A DNA stretch of 64,000 nucleotides from a bacterium (GCA_020444065.1 JAHLLQ010000004.1:198662-262661); one strand, 5' to 3'. Shown: positions 2,791 to 61,483, numbered from the stretch's first letter. Notes: a model not told the origin generated them from the letters alone. Numbers and translations are program-made.

Positions 2791-3009
2791 AGAGGGTCTC
2801 CAAGAAGGGGGTCAGGTGGCGTGTGTCCCACCTGCACGATCTATAAGAGGTCTCAGTGCCTTTATTCAGAGCGAAGCCCCGCAGAGGGGCAATGCTTTCC
2901 CTGGGCGAGCAGCCGCCATGACCCGAACGGCGCTTGACCGCCGGGCGGCTGGCGTGTTGGTTCGGGGCGCGCCCAAAGGGGCGGTTATTCTATCGAGGAT
3001 GGGCCCGAC

Positions 3010-4122
3010 ATGTCTTCTGTGCTTCCCAATGCAACGTCTCACCGCTGGCCGGGATTGATCGAACGTTACCGCGAGTACCTGCCGGTGACGGACAAGACAC
3101 CGGTCGTGACGCTGCACGAAGGCAACACGCCGTTGATTCACTGCCCCGCGGTCTCCGAACGCGTTGGCAAGGGTGTGAACGTCTTCGTGAAGTACGAAGG
3201 CCTGAACCCGACCGGATCGTTCAAGGACCGCGGCATGACCATGGCCGTGTCGAAGGCCAAGGAGGAAGGCTCGAAGGCAGTGGCTTGCGCATCGACCGGC
3301 AACACGTCTGCATCGGCGGCGGCCTACGCAGCTCGCGCCGGGATGACCTGCGCGGTTCTGATTCCGTCCGGCAAGAACGTTGCCCTCGGCAAACTCGCCC
3401 AGGCCATGATTGCCGGCGCCAAAGTGATCCGCATCGACGGCAACTTCGACGAGGCCCTCGAGTTCGTTCGCGAGGTTTGCGACAACCACCCCATTACGTT
3501 GGTGAATTCGCTGAACCCGTACCGAATCGAAGGGCAGAAGACCGGCTCGTTCGAGATCTGCGAACAGCTTGGCGGCAAGGCCCCGGAGCTCCACTGTATC
3601 CCCGTCGGCAACGCCGGAAACATCACCGCCTATTGGAAGGGCTACACCGAGTTTCACGCGGCCGGCAAGATCCCCGCGACCCCGACGATGTGGGGCTTCC
3701 AGGCAGAGGGCGCCGCACCCATCGTCCGCGGCCACAAGGTCGACAAGCCCGAGACCCTCGCGACCGCGATCCGGATTGGCAATCCCGCCTCCTGGAAACA
3801 GGCGGAAGCGGCACGCGATGAATCCGGCGGCCTGATCGACATGGTGACCGACGCAGAAATCACCGCCGCTTCGAAGTTCCTTGCGACGCGCGAAGGCGTC
3901 TTCTGCGAGCCGGCCTCGGCGGCTTCCGTCGCGGGGCTGATGAAGAAAGCCGAAGCGGGCCTCGTGGAACCGCTGGTGAAGGAATACGGCGAATTGAACG
4001 TCGTCTGTATCCTGACCGGGCACGGCCTGAAGGACCCCGACTTCGCGATCGGCAACACCGGGGGACTGATCGACATTCCGGCCAGCATGGATGCCGTGCT
4101 GGAGGTCCTTGGGCTGGACTGA
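3010..4122 (+). CDS. thrC: threonine synthase
   Basis: Track ORF 370 aa; PLP-lysine motif GSFKDRG; overall fold-type II PLP enzyme resemblance to ThrC. Confidence 0.92.
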
Positions 4123-7079: not shown

Positions 7080-7128
7080 GCTTTCCCCCCGACTAGCCTT
7101 CGGTTGTCCTCCCTGAGGGACCCGACCG

Positions 7129-7172
7129 CCGCCCCGCCGAATTTCCCCCCTCGGCGGGGCGGGGTTCTTTTT
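7129..7172 (+). terminator. rho-independent terminator downstream of the nuclease gene
   Basis: 12-bp perfect stem CCGCCCCGCCGA / TCGGCGGGGCGG, loop ATTTCCCCCC, followed by GGTTCTTTTT. Confidence 0.75.
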
Positions 7173-7258
7173 AGAGGAAGCCGTATCGCGCCCCTGCGCT
7201 TGACTTCCGCTCAATCATTGGCCCCAGTAGTGTCATATGCTCCAGGGAGTTCGAGTCC

Positions 7259-9992: not shown

Positions 9993-10038
9993 GGACGTCT
10001 CCTGGCGAAATCGATGTTTGTTTAAGAGAGGTTCTGAA

Positions 10039-13719: not shown

Positions 13720-14320
13720 TCTCGAAGAGAAGGTCGATTGAACTCACAGTTGCACGGACGATCCCAGAGCTCAAGTCCTCACTGCACAGGATGTCCAGGA
13801 ATCGGATCATAGAAAGGCATGGTAGGGTCCATTCGGAGCAAAACGGCGTCGTTTGGACCGGTCAATCTTTAACAGCCGTGAAAACCGGCGGGCAAAGTGA
13901 GAGCGGAAATTCGAAGAGAAGTGATTTTCCATGCCAAGCGCCTTCGTTTTATCAAAATCCTGCGACGCGGCTTCTTGTCTTACTCAGTTTGAGCGCACCA
14001 AGACTTCATCGTGAAAGATTGATATAATTGGATTTGTGCTGTTTATTTACCGCTTGAGAAACCGCGGGCGAGCAAGCCCTTAACCAGAGGCCTGGGCACC
14101 CGGTTTTTATAAAACGTTTCATTGTATTTTTCCAAATTTTCGGAATTCGAAAGATTAATCGCGTTGCACGTTCGCACCGTTTTTGATTGAAGTGGTCCAA
14201 CGTCAATAAAGGCTTTGCCTGTCGGGGGGAAGCCCAAGTGACGAAATCCAAATTGTCCGAAAAGTCGAGCGTCGCACCGCACCGCATCGCCGGCTCAGAA
14301 GGGCAGAAGGGAAAGTCACC

Positions 14321-15736
14321 ATGAAGAAATTTAGTAAAGCTCTCGTTGCCGGCGCCGCACTCGCCCTCGCACTGCCGGCAGGCCTCCAGGCCGGTGTTAT
14401 GATGCAAGGCTTCTATTGGGACACCCCCAATGGTTGGTACAACACGATGAAGAACAACGCCTACAGTCTGCGCTACATGACTGGCGGCGAAGGCATCGAC
14501 CGCATGTACTTCCCGCCCCCGTCGAAATGCGCCGGCGGCGGCTACTCCATGGGCTACGACCCGCACGACTATTATGACGTTGGCCAGTACTATCAGCACG
14601 GCACAACCGCCACCCGTTTCGGAACGCAGGCTGAGTTGAAGGCCGCCACCTCCAAGTATCGCGGCTACGGCGTTGTGACGATGGCGGACATCGTCCTCAA
14701 CCACCGCAGTGGCGGTAACAGCGAATACAACCCCAACGCCGGCTACAACACCTGGACGAAGTTCAATAACCAGTCCTCCGGCATGTGCGTGTGGAACTAC
14801 AATGACTTCCACCCGTCGACCTTCGAATGGTCGGACGAAGGCGTTTTTGGTGGCTATCCGGACGTCTGCCACAACACTGGTTCTGCTCCAGGCCAGCCCT
14901 ACGGCGACTTGATCAGTTGGGGCAACTGGCTGAAGAACACCGGCAACGCCGGCTTCAACGGCGGATGGCGCTTCGACTACGTGAAGGGCTATCACCCGTG
15001 GATGTCCAAGGACTTCCGTTACAACACCGGCTACGGCATGGGCGTTGGCGAGTACTGGGATTCCAACACCAGCACGTTGAACTGGTGGGCCGGCTCTGCC
15101 GACTGCCAGGCGTTTGACTTCGCAGCCTACTACACGCTGAAAGATATCTGCACCAACACCGGCGGTGGCGGCTACATGCCAAACCTCGTCAATAGCAACA
15201 AGTCCTTCGCGGCCAAGAACAGCTATCGCGCCGTCGGATTCGTCGGGAACCACGACACCGACGAGATCTTCACCGACAAGATGCTGGCCTATGCTTACAC
15301 GATGACCTACAAGGGCTATCCCTGCATCTACTGGAAGGATTACTTCAACTACGGTCTTGCAACCCTTGGCGGCCAGTGGGGCAACGGCATCAAGCAGTTG
15401 ACCTGGGTTCGTAACAAGCTGGGCAACGGCGGACCGAACGTCCAGAACCTGAAGACCAACGATGGCAACCTGTTGATCTACGGCGACGCCGACGGCAACA
15501 GCAGCCACCCGGGCTTCATCATCGCGATCAACGACGACAGCTACTCCTGGCGCGGCTCCTGGGTCCAGACTTCGAATGGCAACCTGAAGAACAAGACCCT
15601 GAAGTGCTACGCCTGGTACTCGCCCAACAGCGGCCAGAACTATCAGCCCTCCAGCAAGTGGTGTAACAGCAGCGGCTGGGTCGAAGTTTGGGCACCGCCG
15701 CGCGGCTACGCCGTGTACGCGCCTAACGGGTACTGA
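14321..15736 (+). CDS. secreted alpha-amylase, glycoside hydrolase family 13
   Basis: Track ORF 471 aa; signal peptide MKKFSKALVAGAALALALPAGLQA; GH13 conserved regions DIVLNH, GWRFDYVKG, GEYWD, FVGNHD; Asn/Tyr/Trp/Gly-rich composition. Confidence 0.9.
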   Translation: MKKFSKALVAGAALALALPAGLQAGVMMQGFYWDTPNGWYNTMKNNAYSLRYMTGGEGIDRMYFPPPSKCAGGGYSMGYDPHDYYDVGQYYQHGTTATRFGTQAELKAATSKYRGYGVVTMADIVLNHRSGGNSEYNPNAGYNTWTKFNNQSSGMCVWNYNDFHPSTFEWSDEGVFGGYPDVCHNTGSAPGQPYGDLISWGNWLKNTGNAGFNGGWRFDYVKGYHPWMSKDFRYNTGYGMGVGEYWDSNTSTLNWWAGSADCQAFDFAAYYTLKDICTNTGGGGYMPNLVNSNKSFAAKNSYRAVGFVGNHDTDEIFTDKMLAYAYTMTYKGYPCIYWKDYFNYGLATLGGQWGNGIKQLTWVRNKLGNGGPNVQNLKTNDGNLLIYGDADGNSSHPGFIIAINDDSYSWRGSWVQTSNGNLKNKTLKCYAWYSPNSGQNYQPSSKWCNSSGWVEVWAPPRGYAVYAPNGY

Positions 15737-15796
15737 TCCGCAGGCTTGACTCATGGGGGGACGCTCGGATGCCTCGTTTGAGCGTGTCACCGTGAC

Positions 15797-21158: not shown

Positions 21159-21995
21159 TTACAGACGCTCGATAATGCCGGCAACCAGTTGACAGAATTT
21201 CTCACCAACCAGTTTGCCCGTCTCCATCACTTCCTCGTGGGTCGTGACGACGTCGGACTTCAGCACCAGCGAGTTCGTGATCACCGAGATGCCCAGCACG
21301 CGTGCGCCGGCGTGTACAGCCACGAGGTTCTCCGGCACGGTCGACATGCCGACGGCATCGGTCATGCTGCGGAACATCTGGACTTCGGCCTGTGTTTCAT
21401 AGGTCGGGCCGGTGCTGGCCAGGTACGTGCCTTCCTGCAGTGTGATTCCCAAGTCGCGGGCCGTGCTGCGGGCCAACTCCATCAGCTCCGGATCGTACGG
21501 AGCCGACATATCCGGGAAGCGCGGCCCGATCGAATCCAGGTTCGCGCCGATCAGCGGATTACGGAACTGGTTGTTGATGTGGTCGTTGATCAGCATCAGG
21601 TCGCCGGGCGTGAAGAGACGATTCACACTGCCGGCGGCATTGCTCAGAATCACTGTCTCGACCCCGAGCGACAACAGCGCACGCAGCGGAATCACCGTCT
21701 CGCGCACATCGACGCCTTCATAGACGTGCTTGCGGCCGCTCATGACGATCACGGGCTTACCGCCGACCTTGCCCCAGACCAGGCGCCCGGCGTGGCCAAC
21801 CACGGTGCTTTGGGGGAAGTGTCGCAGCTCGTCGTAGGAAACCGACTTGGCATCCTCGACGGATTCGCCGAACTTGCCGAGGCCGCTGCCGGCCACGACC
21901 AGGATCTTCGGCACATCGCCGACCTTCTCGCGCACGCTGTCCGCGGCGTCCTTGATCAGCGCTTCATGTTGTTTCGGATCGTCGAGATGACTCAC
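21159..21995 (-). CDS. purine nucleoside phosphorylase (PNP/MTAP family)
   Basis: Track ORF 278 aa; PNP-family pattern (VVGHAGRLVWG, YEGVDV, STVPE). Confidence 0.85.
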   Translation of the reverse strand: MSHLDDPKQHEALIKDAADSVREKVGDVPKILVVAGSGLGKFGESVEDAKSVSYDELRHFPQSTVVGHAGRLVWGKVGGKPVIVMSGRKHVYEGVDVRETVIPLRALLSLGVETVILSNAAGSVNRLFTPGDLMLINDHINNQFRNPLIGANLDSIGPRFPDMSAPYDPELMELARSTARDLGITLQEGTYLASTGPTYETQAEVQMFRSMTDAVGMSTVPENLVAVHAGARVLGISVITNSLVLKSDVVTTHEEVMETGKLVGEKFCQLVAGIIERL

Positions 21996-27717: not shown

Positions 27718-27876
27718 CAATTCTTCGAGCTGGAATCCGCGACCGGCGGGGTGGACAACCGGACCGTTCGCGCACCCGGAACGGTAAACTTATGGCTGCT
27801 TCCTTCCGGACCTGACCAGGTTCGTTCCCGTCCGTCGCACGGGGCCCGGCTGTCCACTCCGCCGGCCCGCGGGGGA

Positions 27877-31211: not shown

Positions 31212-34200
31212 ATGGCAACCTTCGCGAATCACCGAAGTCTGGCGTTCAGTTCCCTCATCCTGCTGCTTACTCTCTGTGCCGGGACGGCTTTGGCCGCAAA
31301 GATCCCCGCCAAGGGCATCGAATCCCTGCCCCACGAATACCTGTTCGAGCAGGCCGATAGCCTTCGGTCATTTTCAGATCGGATTGAACTCCAGGGATCC
31401 ATCAACTCTGACGAGTTGCACCTGCTGCGCCGTGCATGGGTGGTTGCCGCTCCTCCGGGAGAGATCGAATACGAGATTCGCAGCCTTACCATCAAAGATC
31501 ACATCACGGGCGTTCCGGTGGAACTGACTTCCGCCGAGGGCATTGACGAGGTCCGGGAGAGCTACGGATTCAGAACTGGTTTCATCGTGGAAGAAATGGG
31601 CATCATGCGAAATGTCCGACTGCTCCGCGTGGTCGTGAACGGCGATGCCCAGATTCTCTACAACAAGCGCAGCTTCTCGCTTCGTCAGTTCGACATCGTC
31701 ATCAAGTTCCCAGAATGGAGCCCAGAGGATGTCTCCAACGGCTCCTTCTCAAGTGAACAAAGCAGCTTGCGCCAGATGCTCGAACAATCGGTCGCGAACC
31801 CCGAGATGCTGGACCTCTACGCGCAGGCAGACCCGCCTGAGACCGAGACAAGCCTGCACGCAAAGTCCGCTTGGCAGCCGCGTCCCGAACTGACAGCGGA
31901 GGACTTCCCTTGGCTGAAGATTCCGATCACCGAGGACGGCTTGTACGCGATCGACGGGCGCTGGCTGTCGGGTCAGGGGCTGGATCCCTCGACGATTGAT
32001 CCGGCATCGCTCTTCCTCGTGAACCGCGGCGAAGAAGTCGCCCTGGTGCAAGCCGGCCCTGAGGGGGCATCGTTCGCCACCGGCGCCCGTCTAATTTTCC
32101 TCGGGCTGAAGAATCACTCCAAAGAAACAAACGAGCGCATCTACTTTCTTGGTCGTCGAGAGACGCCCCAGGAACGTCCCGCTCTCGCCACTGCTGAAGA
32201 TCTCGATGAAGATGCAGAAGTCGAACGCACCTACCGCCGGAAGACGCGCATCGAGGAGGACGTGAACCTCGAAACGCGCGTTGGCAGCTTCCTGAGTATT
32301 CGCGAGATGACATGGGTATGGGATGAATTGCCGCGCGACACGCCGGAGAGTTTCACCTTCGATCTGCAGACCCTTCCATCGTCGGCACCCGCAGCCAAGG
32401 GATCGATCAAGGTCTACTACGCGGGCGTTGGCCTGACCGGCGTTGTGACCCTCGCGGTGAAACTCAATGGCAAGGAACTGGTGCCCGGTGCGACCCTAAC
32501 AAGTCGCCGCAACGTGGTGGATTTCGATATCCCCGAAGGCCTCCTGCAGGTGAACGACAACGTGTTCGAACTCACCATGAAGCAGCCTACGGGCTCGGGC
32601 AATCGCCAGATTCCGCCCATCTATCTCGATTACATCGAACTCGAGCATCAGAGTCTCTTCCGCGCGCACGATGGCCAGCACCTCGCGGACTTCGGCAGCG
32701 AGAAGAGTATCTCCGGCAACGTTCGGCTCGGCGCCGTTGGCTTCCGTCCCTATCGGATGCTGGCAGTGGACGTGACGAAGCCTGAGCAGCCGCTCCGACT
32801 TCCCGTCGTTGAAGGCGAAGGCATCATTTACGTCCTGGCCGATGTCACGCCCGAAACTCGGATTCTCATGATGGAAGACGACGTCGTTCCACGTGCCCCA
32901 GCCGGCGAGCCACTGCATTGGCAGGATTGGCGCGCGCAGGATTCAAGCGCTCAAGTCGTGGTCATCTATCATCCGGATTTCGAAGAGTCCGCACATCGGC
33001 TCGCCGCAGACATCGAGTCCTCCGGACGCGATGTCGTCCTCGCCGATGTAGAAAGCATCTATGAAGCCTACACGGACGGTGAACTGAGTGTCGATGCGAT
33101 CCAGATGTTCCTGCGCGATGCTATCTATCGTTGGGATGGTGAGCGTCCGACTCACGCAATCCTCGTTGGCGATTGCACGAGCGATGGGCAACGCGTTTCG
33201 CGCAACGACGTGATCAACTACGTGCCGACGCATGTGATCGAGGAAGCAGAGACGCATGCGATCGATGAGTACGCGACCGACCAGTACTACGCTTGGCTGG
33301 CCGGCGACGATGAAGTCGCCGATATCATCGTTGGTCGTATCTCCGTGAACAACATCACCGACGCCGACACCGTGGTGGATAAGTCCATCGAGTATCGCCG
33401 GCAAGACCCGTCAATTTGGGCCAGCCGCTTTGTTACGGTCTCCGACCCGGCCGAGTTCGAAAGCGTCTCCTCGATGCTGGTTCACACGTCTGTCGACCCG
33501 TGGTTTGACTACACGGCAATCAATACAGCGGATTATCCCTGGGAGGATAACTTCTACCTGCCGCGGAACTACATCCAGGGCGACGAGATCAAAGTCGCTC
33601 CGGTTGTGACGACGAAGTTGCAGGAAGAAATCGACAGCGGACTCGGCGTCATTTCCTTCTTCGGTCACGGTTCGCCGAATATTTGGTCGAATCAGCGCAT
33701 CTGGTTCGGCGGCGACAGCGAGAACAGCGATAACCTTCGCCTGCGCAACCGCGACCGGCTGGCGTTCATGACGTCGTTCACCTGCAATAATGGTGCGATC
33801 GACTATCCCGTACCGCGTTGGAATGTCTGCATCGCGGAAGACATGATGCGTGTTCCAAAGGGGGGAATGGTGGCGTGCTTCGTACCGTCCGGTCCTGGGT
33901 ACTCCGAGCGCCACTTGCGTCTGGCTGAAGGCTTCTTCCGCACCCTGACGCATTTGAAGGTTCGTGAGTTTGGCCAGGTCGCCGAGATGTCGCGACTCAC
34001 CTATCAGGCCATGCTTGGCTCCGATGATCACGCGCGCATGTTCATCTTCCTCGGCGATCCCACGCTGAAGTTCCCAGCGATCGAGCGCGATGCGGAACTT
34101 TCGATTCGCCCCGACGTCTTGTCGGCGGCCGTTGATCGTCAGCCTATTCGTGCGGCGATGACCACCGAGGAAGAAGAACTGACAACGGGGACGATGATCC

Positions 34201-35738
34201 TTCGCGGCCGCAATGGCCAGGTGATTGCCGAAGGCGAAATGACTCCGGATGGACGTGGCGGCGTTGTCGGTGCCGTGATGGCTGAATTGCCCCGCGACCA
34301 GATGGAGTATCGTCTGATCACGCGAGCGATGGGAAAGAGCGGCGAGCTGTATCGCGCGGGTATGCGAGTCCCTCGCGCGCCCTCGAAGGTCGTCATCGAA
34401 CTGGTCGAAATCGGCGACGTTAGCTATGATCCGCCGTCGCGCGAGTTCACTTACGTTCTCTACAACCAGGGAAACTTCGCGCAGTGGGGTGAGTTGAATG
34501 TCACCCGCCTTCACGACGGAAAACGCATTCAGGCAGGCGTGATTCCATTCGAACTGAAGGCGAAGGAACGCCAGTCCTTCCCGATTAGGCTGGAAGCGCC
34601 CCCCGGAGCTTACGTGATTCAAGCCAATGTGCATCCCTCGCGTACGTACGACTTAAACGAGGAACTTCCCAGCGCGTTGTCGACCGATTGCCTCGTCATT
34701 CCGGACCAGGAGAATCCCGAGGCGGATCTTGTGATTCCGACCGATGCGTTCCGAATTCTTCCTGCGAAGAGCAAGTCCTCCTCGCCATTGGCAGAGACGT
34801 TTATCGCAAACACCGGTGGTAAGCGTCCACGCGCGCGGCTGATTTACCGTGCAGCCTATCCGAATGGCAAAGTCGTGGAAGGCAGCCGGGTGATCGGCTG
34901 GGTCGATCCGGGAAAGGCTGTCCGTTCCACGATCCCAATGCAGATCGAACTCGAAATGACTGCCGATTTGAAAGTTGAATTAATCAGTGAGTCGATGGAT
35001 TTCGAGGATCCGAATCCAGACAATAACTCCCTGACGCGGACGGTTACGGCGGAGTCGATGCCGGACATTCAACTCATTCCCGGCAGCCTGAAGATCTCGC
35101 CCCCGCACCTGGCGGAAGGCGTGACGATCTTCGTTGAAGGTAAGGTCGTCAATCGCGGCCAGACACGTTCTGCAGGTTGCAAGGTTGCGCTCTTCCCGGC
35201 CGGAGACACGGGATTCAACGAGCCTCTGCGCAGCCTGGCCGGACAGAATGGTTCCGACATTCCGCCCCTGCAGCCAGGTTCATCGTGGCCGTTCAAGATT
35301 CGCTGGGATGCCCACGACAATTTGAACGTCGATTCCGTTCAATTACTCCTCGACTCGGATCAGATCCTCGTCGAATCGAACAAACGGAACAACCTCATCA
35401 GCGTGCCACTCGAAATTAAATCGAAGTGGAAACTGGCTCCGCGCGGAATTGCTTTCAAGCAGGATCGCCCGGGTTACTTGACTCTGATCGCGCGTGTCGC
35501 GAACGAAGGCCAAACCGACGCCCGACGCGTGAATGTGATGTTCTATCGAACCACTGACCAGAACGATGAGACCTTCCTCGGCGAAGTGCTCGTCGATCGC
35601 ATCCCCGCCGGCAACATGGCTCTCATCCAGTTCCCATGGAACCTGGAAGGCGAGAACATGCGCCAGAAGGTCCAGCCCAGCTTCAACGTATCGCTGAAGG
35701 GCAGCCTGCAGCGAATCTCGTCGGTCACGGAAGAGTAA
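31212..35738 (+). CDS. giant secreted clan CD cysteine peptidase, gingipain-like (C25-like), with C-terminal CARDB-like repeats
   Basis: Track ORF 1508 aa; signal peptide MATFANHRSLAFSSLILLLTLCAGTALA; putative catalytic His-Gly dyad in FFGHGSP (His codon 33666..33668) and Cys in SFTCNNG (about 33783..33785); C-terminal Ig-like/CARDB-like repeats. Family call from motif memory. Confidence 0.7.
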   Translation: MATFANHRSLAFSSLILLLTLCAGTALAAKIPAKGIESLPHEYLFEQADSLRSFSDRIELQGSINSDELHLLRRAWVVAAPPGEIEYEIRSLTIKDHITGVPVELTSAEGIDEVRESYGFRTGFIVEEMGIMRNVRLLRVVVNGDAQILYNKRSFSLRQFDIVIKFPEWSPEDVSNGSFSSEQSSLRQMLEQSVANPEMLDLYAQADPPETETSLHAKSAWQPRPELTAEDFPWLKIPITEDGLYAIDGRWLSGQGLDPSTIDPASLFLVNRGEEVALVQAGPEGASFATGARLIFLGLKNHSKETNERIYFLGRRETPQERPALATAEDLDEDAEVERTYRRKTRIEEDVNLETRVGSFLSIREMTWVWDELPRDTPESFTFDLQTLPSSAPAAKGSIKVYYAGVGLTGVVTLAVKLNGKELVPGATLTSRRNVVDFDIPEGLLQVNDNVFELTMKQPTGSGNRQIPPIYLDYIELEHQSLFRAHDGQHLADFGSEKSISGNVRLGAVGFRPYRMLAVDVTKPEQPLRLPVVEGEGIIYVLADVTPETRILMMEDDVVPRAPAGEPLHWQDWRAQDSSAQVVVIYHPDFEESAHRLAADIESSGRDVVLADVESIYEAYTDGELSVDAIQMFLRDAIYRWDGERPTHAILVGDCTSDGQRVSRNDVINYVPTHVIEEAETHAIDEYATDQYYAWLAGDDEVADIIVGRISVNNITDADTVVDKSIEYRRQDPSIWASRFVTVSDPAEFESVSSMLVHTSVDPWFDYTAINTADYPWEDNFYLPRNYIQGDEIKVAPVVTTKLQEEIDSGLGVISFFGHGSPNIWSNQRIWFGGDSENSDNLRLRNRDRLAFMTSFTCNNGAIDYPVPRWNVCIAEDMMRVPKGGMVACFVPSGPGYSERHLRLAEGFFRTLTHLKVREFGQVAEMSRLTYQAMLGSDDHARMFIFLGDPTLKFPAIERDAELSIRPDVLSAAVDRQPIRAAMTTEEEELTTGTMILRGRNGQVIAEGEMTPDGRGGVVGAVMAELPRDQMEYRLITRAMGKSGELYRAGMRVPRAPSKVVIELVEIGDVSYDPPSREFTYVLYNQGNFAQWGELNVTRLHDGKRIQAGVIPFELKAKERQSFPIRLEAPPGAYVIQANVHPSRTYDLNEELPSALSTDCLVIPDQENPEADLVIPTDAFRILPAKSKSSSPLAETFIANTGGKRPRARLIYRAAYPNGKVVEGSRVIGWVDPGKAVRSTIPMQIELEMTADLKVELISESMDFEDPNPDNNSLTRTVTAESMPDIQLIPGSLKISPPHLAEGVTIFVEGKVVNRGQTRSAGCKVALFPAGDTGFNEPLRSLAGQNGSDIPPLQPGSSWPFKIRWDAHDNLNVDSVQLLLDSDQILVESNKRNNLISVPLEIKSKWKLAPRGIAFKQDRPGYLTLIARVANEGQTDARRVNVMFYRTTDQNDETFLGEVLVDRIPAGNMALIQFPWNLEGENMRQKVQPSFNVSLKGSLQRISSVTEE

Positions 35739-46965: not shown

Positions 46966-47051
46966 TATCTCCGCATGAATTCCCGAGTTGACCCGTCGCC
47001 TCTGCCCGGGCGAGGCTGTTCGATCATCATACCAAGGGATGGTGTGCTCGT

Positions 47052-47960
47052 ATGAACAAAGATTCGGATGCTCTGGTAGGACAAATCGCGGACGTCGTGA
47101 TGCAGGTAATGGCCGAGCGCGGCCTTCTCGGTGGGGGAGACGCCCCCGCCGCATCTGCGACGGTTGGGACAGGAACGGCCTGTAGTTTGCCCCACGGCAT
47201 GGCTGCCCAAGGCCCTCCGCCCAAGCACGATCTCGTGCAGGCCGGCGCCGAGCGCATCGGCCACACCGGCGAGCAGCCTCCCAGCGGCGAGGCCTGCATG
47301 CGGCTGTCGAACTACATCGACCATACGCTGCTGAAGGCGACGGCGACCGAGGACGAGATTCGGCGCCTCTGCGAAGATGCTCGGAAGCATCAGTTTGCAT
47401 CGGTCTGTGTCAACTCGGCTTACGTGCCGCTTTGCAAAGAAATGCTGGAAGGCTCCGGCGTCAGCGTCTGCACCGTCGTCGGATTTCCCCTGGGGTCGAT
47501 GTCCAGCGAGGCCAAGGCCTTCGAGACCGCCGATGCCGTGACCAAGGGGGCCGACGAAGTCGACATGGTTATCAATGTCGGTAAGCTTCAGTCGGGCGAC
47601 TTCAAGTACGTCTGCGACGACATTCGGGCCGTTGTGTCCGCGGCGCGCGGCCGCACCACCAAGGTCATCATCGAGACATCCTATCTGAACAACGACGAGA
47701 TCGTGCATGCCTGTGTGCTCTCCAAGGCTGCAGGTGCAGACTTCGTGAAGACCAGCACCGGATTCGCCGGCGCCGGGGCGAAGGCCGAGCACGTAGCGCT
47801 GATGCGCAAGACCGTCGGCAAGGAAATGGGCGTGAAGGCCAGCGGCGGAATCCGTGACTGCGACGCAGCCCGCCAGATGATCGACGCAGGGGCCAATCGT
47901 CTCGGCGTCAGCGCCAGCGTTGCCATCGTACAGGGCAAGAAGTCGGACAGCAGCTACTGA
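47052..47960 (+). CDS. deoC: deoxyribose-phosphate aldolase with 82-aa N-terminal extension
   Basis: Track ORF 302 aa; canonical DeoC begins at internal MRLSNYIDHTLLKATATE; Schiff-base lysine region DFVKTSTGF; also KVIIETSYL and VKASGGIR. Confidence 0.85.
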   Translation: MNKDSDALVGQIADVVMQVMAERGLLGGGDAPAASATVGTGTACSLPHGMAAQGPPPKHDLVQAGAERIGHTGEQPPSGEACMRLSNYIDHTLLKATATEDEIRRLCEDARKHQFASVCVNSAYVPLCKEMLEGSGVSVCTVVGFPLGSMSSEAKAFETADAVTKGADEVDMVINVGKLQSGDFKYVCDDIRAVVSAARGRTTKVIIETSYLNNDEIVHACVLSKAAGADFVKTSTGFAGAGAKAEHVALMRKTVGKEMGVKASGGIRDCDAARQMIDAGANRLGVSASVAIVQGKKSDSSY

Positions 47961-47964
47961 GTAA

Positions 47965-49446
47965 ATGACCACAAAACTCATCGAATTGATCGAGTCGTTC
48001 CCTGGCCGGCGCGTGCTGGTGGTGGGTGATGCGATTCTGGATCACTATGTCATTGGAAGCGTCAGCCGCACGTCGCCAGAGGCGCCGGTCGCTGTCCTGC
48101 GCGTCACGGAAGACGAATGGCTGCCGGGCGGGGCGGCAAACGTCGCGCGTAACCTGGCGGCGCAGCGCTGCCAAGCCACGCTGATTTCTCTTCGCGGCGA
48201 CGACGAACACGGTCGGCGCCTGGAGGAGTTGCTCGGCCGTGATGCGAGCATTCGTCTCGCGTTTGTCGTCGACAAGACGCGTCCCACAACGCTTAAGACC
48301 CGCTGCGTGGCTCAGGGTCAGCAGATGATGCGTCTGGACCGCGAAGAGTCCGGCCCAATCTCCGACACGGTTCGGAAGCGCGTAATGACCGCCGTGCGCC
48401 GCGAGATGAAGCAAGCCGATGGGGTGATTCTCAGCGACTATGGCAAGGGCCTTCTGACGACCGCCCTGGTGCAGGAGATCATCGCCGCCGCTCGTGAGTA
48501 CAACGTTGAGGTGCTGGTCGATCCGAAGGGAACCGACTACTCGCGCTACAAGGGCGCGACTCTGATCACGCCCAATCAGAAGGAAGCCCAGGAGGCCAGT
48601 GGCATCTCGATCGTCGACGAGGAATCCGCTCGTGAAGCCGCCCGCATCTTGCAGGCGAAGGTGCGTGGCAAGGCGATCTGCATTACCCTCGGCGGGCGCG
48701 GTGTGGCTGTCTTCCCGCGGCGCGGTCGCTCCGTTCAGATTCCTGCCCGCGCGCGCGAAGTCTTCGACGTCACGGGCGCGGGCGACACGTTCATCGCGCT
48801 GTTCAGCCTGGCGCGATTCTGCGGCGCGACCTTTCCGCAGGCCGCAGAGATCGGTAATGTTGCCGCCGGCATCGTTGTTGGACGCGCAGGCGTTGCGACC
48901 GTTTCTCTCGATGAATTGAAGCGCGAATTCCTCGGCCAGTCTGCCAACCGCAAGGCGATGGGAATGCGCGAACTGGCGGAAGTCTGTCACTCGCTCTCAC
49001 GAGCCGGCCGGAAGACGGTGTTCACCAACGGCTGCTTCGATGTCTTGAATGTGCGGCACATCCGGCTGCTGGAGCAGGCGCGCGCCCTCGGCGACGTGCT
49101 CGTCGTTGCGCTCAACAGCGACGCGAGCGTCCGACGCCTGAAGGGCGAGCCGCGACCGCTGCTGACCGAGTCGGAACGGGTTGAATTGATCGGCTCGTTG
49201 CCGTACGTTGACTACATCACGGTCTTCGACGGTGAAACGCCGAACGAACTGCTCGAACGGTTGCGCCCGGATATTCTGGTGAAGGGCACTAACGTTGAGA
49301 ATGTCGTTGGCCAGGAAATTGTCGAAGGCTACGGTGGCGAGATTCGCCTGCTCGATCTCGGATTCGGCCCCAGCGTCGACGAGGTCATTCATCGCGCTGC
49401 CGAGGGCACAGCCCCCAATAAACGTAAGCGAAAAGGACGCACATGA
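47965..49446 (+). CDS. hldE: bifunctional D-glycero-beta-D-manno-heptose-7-phosphate kinase / heptose-1-phosphate adenylyltransferase
   Basis: Track ORF 493 aa; N-terminal ribokinase-like domain (DVTGAGDTFIA) and C-terminal nucleotidyltransferase domain (TNGCFDVLNVRHIRLL); starts 4 nt after the deoC stop. Confidence 0.85.
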   Translation: MTTKLIELIESFPGRRVLVVGDAILDHYVIGSVSRTSPEAPVAVLRVTEDEWLPGGAANVARNLAAQRCQATLISLRGDDEHGRRLEELLGRDASIRLAFVVDKTRPTTLKTRCVAQGQQMMRLDREESGPISDTVRKRVMTAVRREMKQADGVILSDYGKGLLTTALVQEIIAAAREYNVEVLVDPKGTDYSRYKGATLITPNQKEAQEASGISIVDEESAREAARILQAKVRGKAICITLGGRGVAVFPRRGRSVQIPARAREVFDVTGAGDTFIALFSLARFCGATFPQAAEIGNVAAGIVVGRAGVATVSLDELKREFLGQSANRKAMGMRELAEVCHSLSRAGRKTVFTNGCFDVLNVRHIRLLEQARALGDVLVVALNSDASVRRLKGEPRPLLTESERVELIGSLPYVDYITVFDGETPNELLERLRPDILVKGTNVENVVGQEIVEGYGGEIRLLDLGFGPSVDEVIHRAAEGTAPNKRKRKGRT

Positions 49447-50558
49447 GTTCCGGGCATTTCGTTGATCAGGTTCAGATCCACGTGAAGGCCGGGGACGGAG
49501 GACATGGCTGCATTTCCTTTCTGCGGATGAAAGGACAGCCATTCGGTGGCCCCGACGGTGGAGACGGCGGGCGCGGCGGTTCGGTGATTCTCGAAGCCGA
49601 ACCGGAGATGCTGACGTTGATCGATTTCAAGTCGCGGCATCACGTGAAAGCCCCGCGCGGTGCAAACGGCGGTGGTAAGAATTGCTCCGGCCGCAGCGGC
49701 TCCGATGTCGTTCTTAAGGTTCCCCTCGGCACGGTTGCCATCGACGCGGACACGCACGAAGAGCTCGGCGATCTGACGCAGCCCGGCCAGCAGCTCGTAA
49801 TCGCCAAAGGGGGCGACGGCGGAAACGGCAACCAGCACTATGCGACCCCGACCAACAAGGCGCCGCGGAAAGCGCAGGATGGCTTCCCCGGTGTGGAACG
49901 AAATGTCGTTCTCGAGCTGAAGGTCATCGCCGATGCCGGGCTCGTCGGCCTGCCAAACGCCGGCAAGTCGACATTGTTGGCCGCCATGACGCACGCGCAT
50001 CCGAAGATTGCGCCCTATCCGTTCACGACAATTCATCCGAACCTGGGCGTCTTCGTCGCATCGGACTTCCAGCGTCGGATTACGCTGGCCGACATTCCGG
50101 GCCTCATCGAGGGCGCCCATACTGGCCAGGGCCTCGGCCATCGATTCCTGCGCCATATCGAGCGCACACGCGCCCTGGTACATCTCGTGGCACCGGAAGC
50201 CGGCACGGACGACGACGGAACAATCACGCTGGCCGACGCGCATCCGGAGACGCTTCTCTACGCGTACGATCTGGTTCGCAGCGAGCTCGAAAGCTACAGT
50301 TCCAAGCTCCTTCTGAAGCCCGTTATCGTGTGTTTGAACAAGGTCGATTTGATGTCCGAAGAGGAAGTCGCGGCAATCGTCGACGCCTTCCGAACCGAAC
50401 GCGACATCGAAGTCCACTTGCTCTCTGCGCAAGACAAGAGCGGAGTAGTGGAACTGCAACGCAAGATCGAGGAACTGGTGCTGGATCCCCCGACCGAGGA
50501 ATCGGAAGTCCGATCCAGGTCCCTGCCTCAATTCGAACTTCGCGAGGAGGAGTCATGA
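49443..50558 (+). CDS. obg: GTPase Obg/CgtA
   Basis: Track ORF 371 aa; Obg fold N-terminal Gly-rich region; G1 motif GLPNAGKST; start overlaps the hldE stop (ATGA). Confidence 0.95.
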   Translation: MSSGHFVDQVQIHVKAGDGGHGCISFLRMKGQPFGGPDGGDGGRGGSVILEAEPEMLTLIDFKSRHHVKAPRGANGGGKNCSGRSGSDVVLKVPLGTVAIDADTHEELGDLTQPGQQLVIAKGGDGGNGNQHYATPTNKAPRKAQDGFPGVERNVVLELKVIADAGLVGLPNAGKSTLLAAMTHAHPKIAPYPFTTIHPNLGVFVASDFQRRITLADIPGLIEGAHTGQGLGHRFLRHIERTRALVHLVAPEAGTDDDGTITLADAHPETLLYAYDLVRSELESYSSKLLLKPVIVCLNKVDLMSEEEVAAIVDAFRTERDIEVHLLSAQDKSGVVELQRKIEELVLDPPTEESEVRSRSLPQFELREEES

Positions 50559-51166
50559 CTCGCCGCATCCTATTTTCGCTGATTCTACCGGTCATCCTCT
50601 TGACTGCCGGTTGTGTGAATATCGCGCCCAAGCTCGGCACCGGGCGTGCCGAGGTCGAACGCTTCGAACGCGCCGTGGACGTGAACCCTGCCAACGAGCA
50701 CGCCTGGTTCCTGCTCGGGAAACGCTTCCTCCAGGGAGAGGATTTCTCGAACGCTGAAAACGCGTTCGAGCACGCGATCGATCTGCGCCCTGACTTCTCC
50801 GAAGCCTATGTGGGCATCGGGGTGAGCCGCCTGCAGCGGGAAGACTGGCGCGGAGCAGCCGATGCCTACGAGCGTCTCCTCGCCATCGAGCCGCAGTCCG
50901 TCGCGGCATACGAGGGCCTGGCCGCTGCGCACCTCGGCGCAAAAGATATCGACGACGCGGAAGCGGCCGCTCTTGAAGCGCTCAAGATCTACGACGGCGC
51001 CCTGCAGGCTCACCGTATCCTTGGCGAAGTCTACTACATTCGCGGCAACTACGCGGGTGCGGTCGAGCAATGGAACATCTCGCTCGAAGAAGGCGAACGC
51101 GCCAGCGATCTTCAGCCCCTTGTCGATGATCTGACCCACTACATGCGCAAGTACGGCGCGGACTGA
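50555..51166 (+). CDS. TPR-repeat lipoprotein
   Basis: ATG 50555 in the track ORF frame (50330..51166) behind RBS GAGGAGGAG; overlaps the obg stop (ATGA); lipobox LLTAGC; TPR-like repeats. Confidence 0.75.
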   Translation: MTRRILFSLILPVILLTAGCVNIAPKLGTGRAEVERFERAVDVNPANEHAWFLLGKRFLQGEDFSNAENAFEHAIDLRPDFSEAYVGIGVSRLQREDWRGAADAYERLLAIEPQSVAAYEGLAAAHLGAKDIDDAEAAALEALKIYDGALQAHRILGEVYYIRGNYAGAVEQWNISLEEGERASDLQPLVDDLTHYMRKYGAD

Positions 51167-51211
51167 TTTCTTCTTCGCGGCCGGGCTCGATACACTTCAG
51201 TTGAGTTCTGA

Positions 51212-57040: not shown

Positions 57041-60000
57041 TTAGTGGAACATCCACCCGCGCGGTGCCGGCGTGTCCGGATCTCCAGCCAGCACAAAGAT
57101 GCCGTAGTCGGTCATCGGCGCGCTGACTTCGCCGCGCTCTTCGATGTGATGCGATGTCAGGGCATCCCAACTCGAAGTGGTTTCATTCCACTTGAACAGC
57201 CCCAACGTTGATGGATCGACTCGATAGAGCGGATCGACGTACTCGGAGTACGTGATCATCACGCCCGTCTTGCCGGCGATGGGACTGTCGTCTGCACTGA
57301 CGATGCGATATGGGCCACGCACAACGTTCTTGCCGGCCGGCGCGGGGCGCGTCACCTCCGTAATGCTCAGGACCGTCCCGGAAGGAATGGCACCGGCCGT
57401 GCCGAAGATACGCAGTGGATCGCCCGACGCCCCCCAATGGATTTCGGCGCTGTCATCGTTGAACGGCACGAAGTGGAACGTGCTCATGATGTCCAACTGC
57501 TCGCCTTCCCAGTCGACCGTCTCCACGACGACGGATCCACTCGGCGCATCGGCATCCCACAGCGACGTCTCTGCCGTGTAGGCACTCTCCCCGGCGTTCC
57601 ATTCAAGATCGATCGTCTTCACCCAGCCGTCCAACTGCTCGGTGCGAATTGTTGCGCGGGGCGGTTCGCTCAGCTCTTCGCTCGACGTGAGGCTGACAAG
57701 CATGAGCGTTACCGTTGTGCCCGGCGACACATCAAGTGCCAGTTCCCGATCCGGCGTCAGCATGCGCTTCTTTGCCCGATCGGGTGCACCACGTGCGCTC
57801 TCCGTCAACGTGCGCGCCCCGTATCGATCATCCGGAAGATCGAAGTAATGCAGCACAGGCTCATCGGCCCCCTCGATCACTTCCAGGATCACGGCGCGGT
57901 CCGAGGGCCAAATATTGTGCAACGTCGTGTAGCCGTAATCATCGGTCGCCATCATGGAGAGCGATGAGCCGTCGGCGTGCTCAAGCAACACAGAGCGTTT
58001 GTCCCACGGCGTACTGTCCGCCTTCAGGAAGCGGAACGTGCCGCCGTAGCCGTAGTAACTCGGTGTGTCGAAGATGTAGACGCGGTCCCAGGCATCGCAC
58101 GGAAGCTCATCGGGCCCCGGCACATGGCCGCCTCGTTCCTCCGGGCGTGTCAGAAGCCAGCGCTGGTAATGCGTCGGCCGAAGGAAATCATTGAGGTTTT
58201 CCTTGATCGTCTCCCAGCACGGCTCGTTGCGATATCGCTCCTGCGCCGTCTCGTGATTGTGAGCATTACCAGTGCCGTCGTCGCAGAAATTGTACGCGGC
58301 GCCCTGGTTGTCCATCACGCAGGCCGAGAGCGGACCGTGAGCTGCAAAGGGAGATTCTTCATCGAGGCGTTGCAGCGTGCAGTTCGAATCGTCGCAGTAC
58401 CACAGATCGTCACTGTAGTGCGTGATGTATTCATCGTAGAGATTCAGCGCGTAGTGCCCCATCTCGTGGATGAAGGTACGATGGTCCGTGATGGCAGCGA
58501 ATTCCATGTTGTTCCAGGAGTACCGTGAATATAGCCCATTGATGTTGGCATTCGCTCGGTAGTTTCGGAAGTGAATGCGCCCATCGCCGCCATCGTCCCA
58601 GAACGACCGATTCTCGTACAACTCAACCAGCTCAAGGAACATCTGTCCGTCGCTGACGTTGTAGAAGTAATCGCTCGCCCGTTCGATCTGGTGGCGCATA
58701 TACTCCCAGTAGATGCCATCCGGATTCCAATCCGTTGCCATCACAAGATGGAAGCCGATCAGTGGATTGCGCCGTTCCAGCACCAGGTCCATCGGGCTGC
58801 CCATATCGCTGACGATGTGCCCTGTCATCTCGCCGTCATCGCCAATGGTGATGTTTGTCAAGTACACGTGGTATGCCCAAGGCGAACCGCCGAGTTCTTC
58901 ACGATCTCTCCGATCGGATTCTTTCGTGTAGACCTTGTAGAGCGCCGTAATGCGATCGCCGATATAGACATCGGGAACGCGAATGGCACCGGCGGCATTC
59001 GTTTCGCCCACGTAGTCGTCATTGTGATAGACCTTCGCGCCGGCGCGTGCTTCGAACGTCGGAGAATCGCCCAAATGCGGAATCTCGACTTCGATGTTCA
59101 CGCCGAGATCTCTCTCGAATCGAGTCGAGCGCCAACCCGTCATCGTTGAACTGTGTCCGACATTATCGTGGAACTGGGCGGCGATCTGGTATTCCGTGTT
59201 CACGTCTGGAGGAGTAAAGAAGACAGTCTGTTCCGGCGCGTGATCGTAGTAGATCCCATACTCCGTCCATTCCGTCATCCCGGCTTCGCGGAAGAAAAGC
59301 TGCCAGTAGTTCAAGCCGCTGCCGCGGTCGCCAATGTCGAAGACTTCCACACGGACGCGGCTTCCCGTGTCATCGTCCGGCGTGGCGTAGATCAGTCCAC
59401 CTGGTGGGAACACATCGACGCGCAGGGGATCGGAGTGCGCGATGTCCGACAGGTTCCCCGCTCGATCTACAGTGACGGCATGCAGGTACCACGGTTCCGT
59501 CCAGTCGTACCCTTCGGTTGTGTCGGAGAATCGGACGCCCTCGTAGTAAATTCCTGCGGACGGATCGGATGTCGGATTGTGCGTGATCAAGTAGCGCATC
59601 CCCACAGCGTCTGTGAAACCATCATCGCCACGCGTGATTGAGAAGGTGGTGTGCGCGTTTGCCCAGTCGGGCCAACTGACGTACCCATCCAGATGGAAGG
59701 TCGGGGGATCCGGCCGGTGCGTGTCGATGTAGAACGGCCCGTCTCGCAATGTCCCGACCGAGATATTGCCGGCGTTGTCGACGGCTCGCAGGTGGATGTA
59801 CCAGTCCGTCGCATCGGCAAGCTCTTCGGTCATTTGCAGACGCGCACCCATGCTGAATTCCGTCACGTCATCCGGCTCGGTGTCGGGATTCTGATCCACG
59901 ACCACGGAATAGCCTGCGATGCCGCTGTGCGCATCTTCGCTGGCCGGCCACGAGTACCGAATCTGATCGATCTTGCTCCACGGCCCCCAGGCATTCGGCT

Positions 60001-61483
60001 CATGCCGGAATGTGTACAGCAGCGATGGCAAGCCCGGCGGCTCCATATCGATTCGCACGGTGTACTCGGGACTGTGGCCAACGTTGCCGGCCGCATCTTC
60101 GATGTGGAATCGAATCCGATAGTTGCTACCGTTTGAATCGAAGGCTGCCACTGTTGTGGAAAGAAGTGCGTGGCTTTCGTCCGATGAGATGACTTCATCG
60201 ACGGGCGCAGTCGTGCTCCATGAGCCGCCGCTGTCGGTGGAGTACTCGAAGGTCGCTGTGCCCGTGGAAAGCTCGACGTTATCTTCCACCAGTACCGAGC
60301 AAGTTGGTGCTGTGTATGTCAGCCAACCGTCCGGTCTGAAGTCCGCCCATCCCGCGGGCGGTGCGCCGTCCTGGCTGTAGAAAAGGCGCACAACCTTCTC
60401 GTTTTCGATGGCAATCATATCAGGCCAGACATCGTTATCCAGGAACTCAAACGATGAGCGCGTAAACTTGTTTCCATCGCCGACCTTCACCGCCTCCTTG
60501 GGGGCGCCCCACTTCTCAACGTCCTCACCGCTCAGGATGAAGAGACTGTCATTGGTGGTTCCGAGAATATCGTAGTGCCCATCGCGGTCGTGATCCATGA
60601 CCGAGAGCCACTTGTAAACATAGCTCTTTTCGGAGTGAACGAGTTCCCACGGATCCGTTGCCCGATTCATCAGAATCAGCAACGTCCCATCCCCATCCAG
60701 AGCATACAGATCCATGTAGCTGTCCTTGTTGAAATCGAAGGACCAGCACATCGTGATTCCCAGGTCCTGAGGCAAGTTCTTGCGATCGACGATCCACGTT
60801 GGATCATCGTATCGAAAGAGAAAGAGGGCGCCGGTCGAATCCACGCACATGGCATCGTGGAAGCCGTCCTTCTCAAAGTCGCCGACGGCCAGCCACTTCA
60901 CAGACAGACCACTTGTGTCGCCCACCGTCCGATCCCAGCCGCCACCTCCGCCGCCCGGGACGAACTTGAAGATGTCTACGCCCTCCGCGCTCGGCGGAGA
61001 CGCAAACACCACGGGCATCGTATCGCCATTGATGTAGCCGAAATCCAGCGTCGAGTAATTCATCGCGGGCGACATGGGGTAGGACTTCAGCCAGCCGTTG
61101 TTCTCCCACTTGCAGAAGTGGATGCCTTCGGTGGTTTTGCTGAGGAAGAATGCCTCCTCGTGATCGTCCAGGTCGATGTCGCGCAGGAAGATGTTGGAGA
61201 AGGTCGGCCAACCCGGGATATCGGCCGTCGTCGCATCCGTCCATGTCGCGCCGCCATCGCCAACGAAGTACATGGCGCCGGCCCCGGTCCCTTCCGCCGC
61301 GAGCATCAGATCCGTATCATTGTCGTCATCGGGATCCGCGGCGTCGTAGCCCTGTCCGGAGAGCCCGTGCCCGGTCTGCTCCGTCCACGAGATCTGCGCA
61401 GTGACGGGCGCAATAAACAAGAATGCGGCGCAGCACAAGAGCGCCAGTCGACGGGAAACCCCCGTCAAAAAAGTCAATTCCAT
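57041..61483 (-). CDS. giant secreted zinc metalloprotease with N-terminal FG-GAP/VCBS-like beta-propeller repeats and Ig-like domains (possibly M6 / InhA-PrtV-like)
   Basis: Track ORF 1480 aa; signal peptide; FG-GAP-like repeats (VGDFEKDGFHDAMCVDSTGALFLF, FDFNKDSYMDLYALDGDGTLLIL, MDHDRDGHYDILGTTNDSLFIL); zinc-binding HEXXH in TFIHEMGHYALNLYDEY. Confidence 0.75.
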   Translation of the reverse strand: MELTFLTGVSRRLALLCCAAFLFIAPVTAQISWTEQTGHGLSGQGYDAADPDDDNDTDLMLAAEGTGAGAMYFVGDGGATWTDATTADIPGWPTFSNIFLRDIDLDDHEEAFFLSKTTEGIHFCKWENNGWLKSYPMSPAMNYSTLDFGYINGDTMPVVFASPPSAEGVDIFKFVPGGGGGGWDRTVGDTSGLSVKWLAVGDFEKDGFHDAMCVDSTGALFLFRYDDPTWIVDRKNLPQDLGITMCWSFDFNKDSYMDLYALDGDGTLLILMNRATDPWELVHSEKSYVYKWLSVMDHDRDGHYDILGTTNDSLFILSGEDVEKWGAPKEAVKVGDGNKFTRSSFEFLDNDVWPDMIAIENEKVVRLFYSQDGAPPAGWADFRPDGWLTYTAPTCSVLVEDNVELSTGTATFEYSTDSGGSWSTTAPVDEVISSDESHALLSTTVAAFDSNGSNYRIRFHIEDAAGNVGHSPEYTVRIDMEPPGLPSLLYTFRHEPNAWGPWSKIDQIRYSWPASEDAHSGIAGYSVVVDQNPDTEPDDVTEFSMGARLQMTEELADATDWYIHLRAVDNAGNISVGTLRDGPFYIDTHRPDPPTFHLDGYVSWPDWANAHTTFSITRGDDGFTDAVGMRYLITHNPTSDPSAGIYYEGVRFSDTTEGYDWTEPWYLHAVTVDRAGNLSDIAHSDPLRVDVFPPGGLIYATPDDDTGSRVRVEVFDIGDRGSGLNYWQLFFREAGMTEWTEYGIYYDHAPEQTVFFTPPDVNTEYQIAAQFHDNVGHSSTMTGWRSTRFERDLGVNIEVEIPHLGDSPTFEARAGAKVYHNDDYVGETNAAGAIRVPDVYIGDRITALYKVYTKESDRRDREELGGSPWAYHVYLTNITIGDDGEMTGHIVSDMGSPMDLVLERRNPLIGFHLVMATDWNPDGIYWEYMRHQIERASDYFYNVSDGQMFLELVELYENRSFWDDGGDGRIHFRNYRANANINGLYSRYSWNNMEFAAITDHRTFIHEMGHYALNLYDEYITHYSDDLWYCDDSNCTLQRLDEESPFAAHGPLSACVMDNQGAAYNFCDDGTGNAHNHETAQERYRNEPCWETIKENLNDFLRPTHYQRWLLTRPEERGGHVPGPDELPCDAWDRVYIFDTPSYYGYGGTFRFLKADSTPWDKRSVLLEHADGSSLSMMATDDYGYTTLHNIWPSDRAVILEVIEGADEPVLHYFDLPDDRYGARTLTESARGAPDRAKKRMLTPDRELALDVSPGTTVTLMLVSLTSSEELSEPPRATIRTEQLDGWVKTIDLEWNAGESAYTAETSLWDADAPSGSVVVETVDWEGEQLDIMSTFHFVPFNDDSAEIHWGASGDPLRIFGTAGAIPSGTVLSITEVTRPAPAGKNVVRGPYRIVSADDSPIAGKTGVMITYSEYVDPLYRVDPSTLGLFKWNETTSSWDALTSHHIEERGEVSAPMTDYGIFVLAGDPDTPAPRGWMFH

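Follow-up and report, generated by a model that had tools for sequence, protein, structure and literature searches.

The described systems closest to the gene analyzed here are the deoxyribose-5-phosphate aldolases (DERAs) of sugar phosphate utilization (SPU) bacterial microcompartments (BMCs). Every SPU DERA carries an N-terminal extension of ~70 amino acids (aa), made up of an amphipathic helix and a poorly predicted segment, which is routinely missed by automatic start calling and which the authors of a 2024 study view as an encapsulation peptide (EP) (PMC11585597). The evidence on the extension in that study consists of solubility effects, activity and a complex with ribose-5-phosphate isomerase (RPI): deletion of the extension turns the insoluble enzyme into a soluble, active dimer, and DERAs without microcompartment association are reported to lack the extension. 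Fragmented loci were left out of that work. Here, we describe an extended DERA that is encoded by a deoC gene in a 64,000-nucleotide stretch of DNA (GCA_020444065.1 JAHLLQ010000004.1:198662-262661; hereafter, the window) from a Sumerlaeota (BRC1) bacterium. We think it likely, with room left for doubt, that this DeoC is an aldolase of the SPU lineage with an N-terminal EP, and a stray cargo of a dispersed microcompartment.

Microcompartment genes of this phylum have been described as dispersed. The BRC1 loci, some of which have PduL or an aldehyde dehydrogenase (AldDH), were termed "satellite-like" in 2014 (PMC4207490), and a type named FRAG6 was defined in 2021 for Sumerlaeota, BRC1 and Hydrogenedentes (supplement of PMC8217296). 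In FRAG6, members of the BMC-P triplet are often encoded at separate sites, the BMC-H gene adjoins that of a pfam02441 flavoprotein, and the best match of the BMC-P proteins is the "SPU-mixed" hidden Markov model (HMM). No signature enzyme is listed for the type, and none is found near its shell genes (PMC8217296). The same catalogue describes genomes of the HO type, in which EP-bearing pfam01791 genes are distal to the shell locus. Compared by description, these aldolases resemble the window's DeoC in having an EP-like N-terminus and in being encoded apart from the shell locus, but they differ in shell type and in phylum (Myxobacteria).

The deoC reading frame begins at ATG 47052, the first start codon past an in-frame stop at 46989, and the 82-codon in-frame extension that the original prediction had placed ahead of the canonical DeoC is present, with 82 to 84 residues preceding a core at aa 85-294. 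The NCBI product (MCB2155643.1, 220 aa, 100% identical) starts at 47298, while the Logan product has 302 aa. A search with the full protein returned ~100 homologues of ~300 aa that align across the extension, mainly from Sumerlaeota/BRC1 metagenome-assembled genomes (MAGs) and metagenomes. Relative to the closest relative (68% identity), 76 aligned codons of the extension comprise 21 identical, 26 synonymous-only and 29 nonsynonymous ones, and the corresponding numbers for the core are 89, 71 and 60. Such a distribution, comparable to that of the core, is typical of purifying selection on a coding sequence. The residue used as a start by NCBI, Met83, is Met in the window protein alone among 94 aligned homologues, and a Met anywhere in positions 78-89 is seen in just 19 of 93 homologues. 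Because the extension is conserved in ~90 homologues, has many synonymous changes and is followed by a Met unique to the window, comparative evidence indicates that the extension is translated and that the start of the 220-aa product is miscalled; initiation at the internal Met near 47298, the outcome that would have spoken against an extension, is not borne out.

Two other accounts of the start were weighed. If the extension were untranslated and the true gene were the 220-aa form, the NCBI annotation and a Shine-Dalgarno (SD)-like GAGG before ATG 47298 would be accounted for. This model is scarcely credible in view of the amino acid conservation, the invariant residues common to 94 homologues, the lack of a start codon at the corresponding site in homologues, and the identical annotation error reported for SPU DERAs (PMC11585597), and we consider it effectively refuted by the comparative data. 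Alternatively, both starts could be used, with a long form directed to a compartment and a short cytosolic form initiated at Met83. The GAGG lies 7-10 nucleotides (nt) upstream of ATG 47298, ATG 47052 has only AAGGGA at −18 to −13, about half of the window genes use such motifs versus a background of 13.5%, and the NCBI pipeline picked the internal start. Since SD-like motifs precede both candidate starts, local sequence cannot choose between them and comparative evidence can: the GAGG falls within Gly-Glu-Ala codons of a variable stretch, and Met83 occurs in 0 of 93 homologues, which makes dual initiation improbable.

The shortened product is not confined to the window. For near-identical orthologues of other Sumerlaeota MAGs, NCBI product lengths vary between 218 and 311 aa, so NCBI start calling is erratic for this gene. 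For MCB2155643.1, HMX62725.1, MEO8376647.1, MCC7392004.1 and HOE63241.1, NCBI lengths are 218-287 aa, with the window protein and several Sumerlaeota orthologues cut to 218-246 aa, and other gene callers arrive at 302-311 aa on identical sequences. The shortening suggests a systematic miscalling of starts, which hides the extension. Upstream of deoC, a scan for sigma-70 promoters gave no match, and an Rfam scan near the locus revealed no RNA element.

Downstream of the extension, the protein is predicted to be a catalytically ordinary DERA (EC 4.1.2.4). The NCBIfam deoC equivalog TIGR00126 matches aa 85-294 over model positions 2-211 of 211 (274.9 bits versus a cut-off of 117.3), the Pfam DeoC family matches aa 88-281, and PDB 6d33 and its relatives cover aa 85-302 (E = 2e-74). 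Among the 94 homologues, D90, D171, K204, K233 (in FVKTSTGF) and K262 (in GVKASGG) are invariant and Y302 is nearly so. We take the catalytic Asp, Lys and Tyr residues of the window protein to correspond to E. coli D102/K137/K167/K201/Y259. The nearest solved structures are ordinary DERAs of 220-224 aa, whose alignment with the window protein begins at aa 82-85 and runs through the C-terminal Tyr, and in the PDB search no solved structure spanned aa 1-54. The window protein shares with cytosolic DERAs (PDB 6d33; E. coli DeoC, 1jcl) the core up to the C-terminal Tyr and the conserved Asp and Lys residues, and differs from their solved forms in its 82-aa extension. An SPU6 homologue is enzymatically active (PMC11585597).

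The original prediction saw in the extension a two-part architecture of an amphipathic helix and a flexible linker. An AlphaFold2 prediction, run on the 94-sequence alignment, agrees with this architecture: aa 3-22 form a helix (predicted local distance difference test [pLDDT], 75-90), aa 29-53 are disordered (pLDDT < 50), aa 54-80 are intermediate (pLDDT, 58-70), and a TIM barrel begins at aa 85 (pLDDT > 95). Flexibility is not the only feature of the linker, as it contains the conserved elements GTACSLPHG, L-x-x-AGAxRIG and Cys82. The hydrophobic moment of the helix is 0.30 versus a shuffle mean of 0.17, and 8% of shuffles reach 0.30; amphipathicity by itself is thus weak evidence, and comparative evidence carries the case. 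In the ten closest homologues, G41, T42, A43, C44, L46, P47, H48 and G49 are invariant. G65, A66 and R68 are invariant or almost so in alignments of 30 and 94 sequences, and the pattern L-x-x-(A/G)-G-A-x-R-(I/V)-G at aa 61-70 is common to all clades. Where the window's clade has GTACSLPHG, most other clades have C-x(3-7)-C-x2-C-x2-C (P0061, P0072, P0083, P0108 and P0119 are among the carriers), and a few, such as the P0062-like clade, have neither. The four-Cys motif resembles a metal or Fe-S site.

Homologous extensions are carried by DERAs encoded in microcompartment loci. The extensions of homologues P0072, P0105 and P0093 consist of a helix, a Cys-motif and an AGAxRIG segment, and have the helix and the G65-A66-x-R68 motif in common with the window protein. 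Their genes lie in canonical SPU loci. In locus L001, the gene order is triosephosphate isomerase (TIM), phosphotransacylase (PTAC), BMC-H, BMC-P, AldDH, a PduS-like gene, BMC-T, RpiB, two more BMC-P genes, and then DeoC (P0072). L016 consists of BMC-H, three BMC-P genes, AldDH, RpiB and DeoC (P0105), and L017 of TIM, PTAC, two BMC-H genes, three BMC-P genes, AldDH, BMC-T, RpiB and DeoC (P0093). SPU loci thus make up three of the four contexts of extension-bearing homologues outside the Sumerlaeota-type group.

The helix also resembles the N-termini of a different SPU enzyme. An HMM of the first 30 residues only, from 86 DeoC homologues, was searched against the N-termini of the 1126 open reading frames (ORFs) of ≥80 aa in the window and in the loci fetched by then. 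The only non-DeoC matches were the L001 AldDH (E = 7e-6) and a 128-aa protein of the same locus (E = 0.003), and the best unrelated ORF had an E value of 0.13. On L016 and L017, the HMM matched the AldDH N-termini (E = 2e-5 and 7.5e-6) and another small locus protein. Because AldDH N-termini of SPU loci are matched, the helix falls, as judged from sequence, in the same class as the EPs of other SPU cargo. With homology along the length of the extension and a helix of the AldDH EP class, the proposal that the extension is an encapsulation peptide is supported.

Like SPU DERAs, of which Chloroflexi SPU6 is the characterized example (PMC11585597; PMC8217296; PMC4207490), the window's DeoC has a DeoC/pfam01791 class I core and an extension of ~70-90 aa that automatic annotation misses, in which a poorly predicted segment comes after an amphipathic helix. 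Unlike them, it is not encoded beside shell, RpiB, AldDH or PTAC genes, its clade has GTACSLPHG instead of a CxxCxxC-type motif, and its host phylum is absent from the curated SPU subtypes.

Another putative interaction tag was seen in the SPU loci. A C-terminal motif, ...(I/V)(V/L)(T/S)PLA/S...(G/E)I.(V/L), is common to small or hypothetical proteins encoded at 2353..3267 and 8717..9103 of L001, 6442..7215 of L016 and 7119..7364 of L017. The L001 TIM has a similar motif in its N-terminal extension (MTPLARDTAARLGV), and the motif may represent a second type of interaction tag. Some SPU DERAs (P0072, P0080, P0086, P0088 and P0117) have a pfam02441 flavoprotein-like domain of ~150-200 aa, inserted after the EP helix and ahead of the Cys/AGAxRIG segment (the gene at 10001..11488 of L001 is an example).

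Part of the extension repeats a segment of the barrel itself. In a profile-profile comparison by hhalign, aa 56-74 (PPKHDLVQAGAERIGHTGE) align with alpha7/beta8 of the barrel, aa 270-289 (CDAARQMIDAGANRLGVSAS), with a score of 33 (P = 4e-7 when the segment was excised and 4.5e-5 when the entire extension was used); the maximum score among the reversed and 20 column-shuffled controls was 16.7. The AGAxRIG segment may have been left by a partial duplication, or it may mimic the barrel segment functionally. We found no mention of this repeat in PMC11585597.

The genomic contexts of extended deoC genes allow for a different interpretation. Ten of the 13 distinct contexts have no shell gene within 10 kb. 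In the other Sumerlaeota-type contexts, the neighbors of deoC differ each time and include holB, major facilitator superfamily, DUF362/psd, class II (Asp/Lys-type) tRNA synthetase and C25 peptidase genes. The window itself is of housekeeping character, as the Pfam and Rfam surveys gave dnaA, cysS, gltX, cmk, a PBP1A gene and a signal recognition particle (SRP) RNA. In L015 (10001..16014), the P0108 deoC heads an ordinary operon for nucleoside catabolism, with genes for phosphopentomutase (deoB), pyrimidine-nucleoside phosphorylase (deoA), purine-nucleoside phosphorylase, cytidine deaminase (cdd) and an amidohydrolase. The extension could therefore be real and translated and yet function independently of a shell, in self-association or condensation, regulation, or metal binding, with SPU systems having recruited an already extended DeoC subfamily. 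Besides these contexts, such a function would be consistent with linker motifs (the Cys cluster or GTACSLPHG, AGAxRIG, Cys82) that are superfluous for a pure tether, with the repeat of alpha7/beta8, and with the aggregation that the extension causes in E. coli without shells (PMC11585597). We consider it unlikely, given that SPU loci predominate outside the Sumerlaeota-type group, that the orphan contexts are concentrated in a phylum with documented dispersed shell genes, that the helix matches EPs of a different enzyme, and that non-microcompartment DERAs are reported without the extension. In a narrower version, the AGAxRIG copy and the N-terminal helix would serve shell-free self-assembly or autoregulation, and some lineages, possibly this one, would have no microcompartment at all. 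This version would explain why most extended genes are seen in housekeeping or plain deo operons, and we regard its chances as low.

Further results weigh against the window's DeoC being a microcompartment cargo. No BMC shell, RpiB, acylating AldDH, PduL or PTAC gene was detected in the 64-kb window, either in tblastn searches with the proteins of the three SPU loci and with PduA and EutN sequences or in a Pfam survey of ~45 ORFs. Neither shell nor RpiB, AldDH or PTAC genes were found within 10 kb of deoC in eight other Sumerlaeota-type contexts, and the P0108 deo operon has no shell gene within 10 kb. A scan of species-representative contigs with the window DeoC as single query gave no match, which places the window's genome outside that collection; the full extension, when aligned, varied too much to be used as a search profile. 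Single-sequence and five-sequence-profile searches with the pfam02441 insert, aimed at the FRAG6 flavoprotein, recovered nothing beyond a fragment of the gene that the query came from. The window's clade has lost the CxxCxxC motif found in most SPU-locus versions, and we found no experimental demonstration of direct encapsulation for any DERA. The original prediction had called targeting speculative for lack of shell genes, and the window indeed has none; we do not count this absence against targeting, because Sumerlaeota microcompartment genes are reported to be dispersed.

A link between extended DeoC and FRAG6 comes from one MAG. The FRAG6 shell proteins in the trees of PMC8217296 come from BY40, HGW-BRC1-1, ADurb.BinA364 and ADurb.Bin183, and the BMC-P of MAG ADurb.Bin183 is catalogued there. 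The extended DeoC P0061, encoded between DUF362 and psd, is named for ADurb.Bin183 (GCA_002070185.1). On that reading, which equates ADurb.Bin183 by MAG name where the catalogue gives a locus tag only, at least one Sumerlaeota genome has both a shell pentamer and a stray extended DeoC. FRAG6 and the window's gene are also alike in phylum and in dispersal, and the pfam02441 flavoprotein beside the FRAG6 BMC-H has a counterpart in the pfam02441 domain inside the extensions of SPU DERAs P0072 and P0080. FRAG6 has no catalogued signature enzyme, a gap that the window's DeoC would fill; co-occurrence is read from the one MAG name shared by the catalogue and the homologue search.

We propose that the window's DeoC is probably a cargo, and the signature enzyme, of a dispersed SPU-like microcompartment, which the FRAG6 description does not state. 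Translation would start at ATG 47052; the helix of aa 3-22 would act as an EP, through co-aggregation with other cargo, shell binding, or both; and the disordered linker and the conserved AGAxRIG segment would join it to the barrel. Because microcompartment genes of the phylum (FRAG6) would be scattered through the chromosome and not clustered, the cargo gene would lie among housekeeping genes, and ahead of hldE-obg by chance. We infer the presence of shell genes in the window's genome and the actual encapsulation of the protein. The extension type was already described in 2024 (PMC11585597); what is added here is a candidate signature enzyme for FRAG6 of Sumerlaeota/BRC1, whose function the catalogue left open, and a corrected gene model, since the NCBI shortening hides the targeting domain. 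If the proposal is correct, the little-known Sumerlaeota would possess a deoxyribose-phosphate (DNA-salvage) metabolosome with its parts scattered over the chromosome; none of the genomes met here belongs to a cultured isolate. Locus-based surveys miss such stray cargo, for which a search with the extension itself is one approach.

The window's clade appears in few genomes. The GTACSLPHG clade leads to the MAGs Candidatus Sumerlaeota SJ135 and SJ802, and a search for the GTACSLPHG pattern found three genome loci and one metagenome locus only; the clade is therefore rare.

As for the genes that follow deoC (Table 1), the tight spacing claimed for a deoC-hldE-obg-lipoprotein series was confirmed. 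The deoC stop codon TGA is followed by GTAA and then by the ATG of hldE (a 4-nt gap), and ATGA overlaps join hldE to obg and obg to the gene of the tetratricopeptide repeat (TPR) lipoprotein. The HldE-like protein has PF00294 at aa 17-312 and PF01467 at aa 353-452. Its kinase half exceeds the cut-off of the heptose-7-phosphate kinase model (rfaE_dom_I, 353.6 bits versus 345), while rfaE_dom_II (154.6 versus 181.5) and full-length HldE (437 versus 521) remain below theirs. Sub-cut-off HldE scores might be expected for a deep-branching phylum, and HldE is by far the best full-length match (E = 6e-131), with the next families, ribokinases, at ≤81 bits. No gmhA, gmhB, hldD or heptosyltransferase gene was found in the window by the Pfam survey.

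The original prediction had suggested that these genes form a functional unit in which HldE activates a sugar phosphate derived from the aldolase, and not heptose. The spacing, the sub-cut-off scores of the adenylyltransferase half and of the full-length model, and the same deoC-hldE-obg order in the closest relative (L007/L008, with a 68% identical DeoC) fit this suggestion. None of the remaining Sumerlaeota-type contexts (L002-L006 and L009-L014) has this order, and the kinase half passes an equivalog cut-off for heptose-7-phosphate kinase. DERA products are C2 and C3 aldehydes, which are not substrates of PfkB heptose kinases. The idea is thus very improbable, and we rejected an aldolase-derived substrate for HldE. 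Because the gene order recurs only in the closest relative, no conserved unit is inferred; the tight spacing reflects co-transcription in one lineage, and we attach no special meaning to the hldE/obg neighborhood.

Table 1. Features of the deoC locus and other annotated elements, in window coordinates
Feature	Position	Strand	Basis or remark
Full-length deoC (DERA) gene	47052..47960	+	302 codons plus stop; correct gene model; ORF list
Encapsulation-peptide-type helix, aa 3-22 (KDSDALVGQIADVVMQVMAE)	47058..47117	+	AlphaFold2; helix HMM, 28.1 bits
Gly/Ala/Pro-rich linker, aa 23-55	47118..47216	+	pLDDT < 50 for aa 29-53
GTACSLPHG motif, aa 41-49, clade-specific	47172..47198	+	Invariant in the ten closest homologues
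Conserved motif PPKHDLVQAGAERIGHTGE, aa 56-74	47217..47273	+	Alignment invariants; profile-level repeat of barrel segment
Cys82, then internal ATG (Met83), the NCBI start	47295..47300	+	64 of 94 homologues have Cys at position 82
Catalytic DERA TIM-barrel core, aa 85-294	47304..47933	+	TIGR00126, PDB matches, invariant residues
Barrel alpha7/beta8 segment, aa 270-289	47859..47918	+	Profile-profile match to 47217..47273
hldE-like bifunctional gene (PfkB kinase plus cytidylyltransferase-like)	47965..49446	+	Pfam, NCBIfam; neighbor, outside the DeoC system
obg (GTPase ObgE/CgtA)	49443..50558	+	TIGR02729, 410 bits versus cut-off of 280
TPR lipoprotein gene, start MTRRILFSLILPVILLTAGC, lipobox LTAGC	50555..51166	+	Pfam TPR families; last of the co-directional run
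Terminator-like hairpin	51183..51208		3′ of the lipoprotein gene
dnaA	23521..24975	−	
Small SRP RNA	27754..27851	−	66 bits versus gathering score of 40

Given the presence of dnaA and the SRP RNA, the window is probably near the replication origin; it contains no tRNA genes in its 64 kb. Two very large proteins of secreted type are encoded in it, a 1508-aa C25 peptidase with CARDB (31212..35738, + strand) and a 1480-aa FG-GAP protein (57041..61483, − strand). C25 peptidase genes are also near deoC in two other Sumerlaeota-type contigs (L005, 13645..16014; L013, 3515..7858), a recurrence that probably represents lineage-typical gene content with no functional link. Two pairs of long ORFs overlap fully on opposite strands, 4458..7079 (+) with 4476..7214 (−) and 14006..15790 (−) with 14321..15736 (+). 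They have no Pfam match, and in both pairs third-position GC is higher (0.82-0.83) for the + strand ORF, whose first-position GC is, atypically, below that of the second position. Finally, a gene for a PNP_UDP_1 family phosphorylase (21159..21995, − strand) lies 25 kb upstream of deoC and is unlinked to it; its product could act upstream of deoxyribose-phosphate formation.

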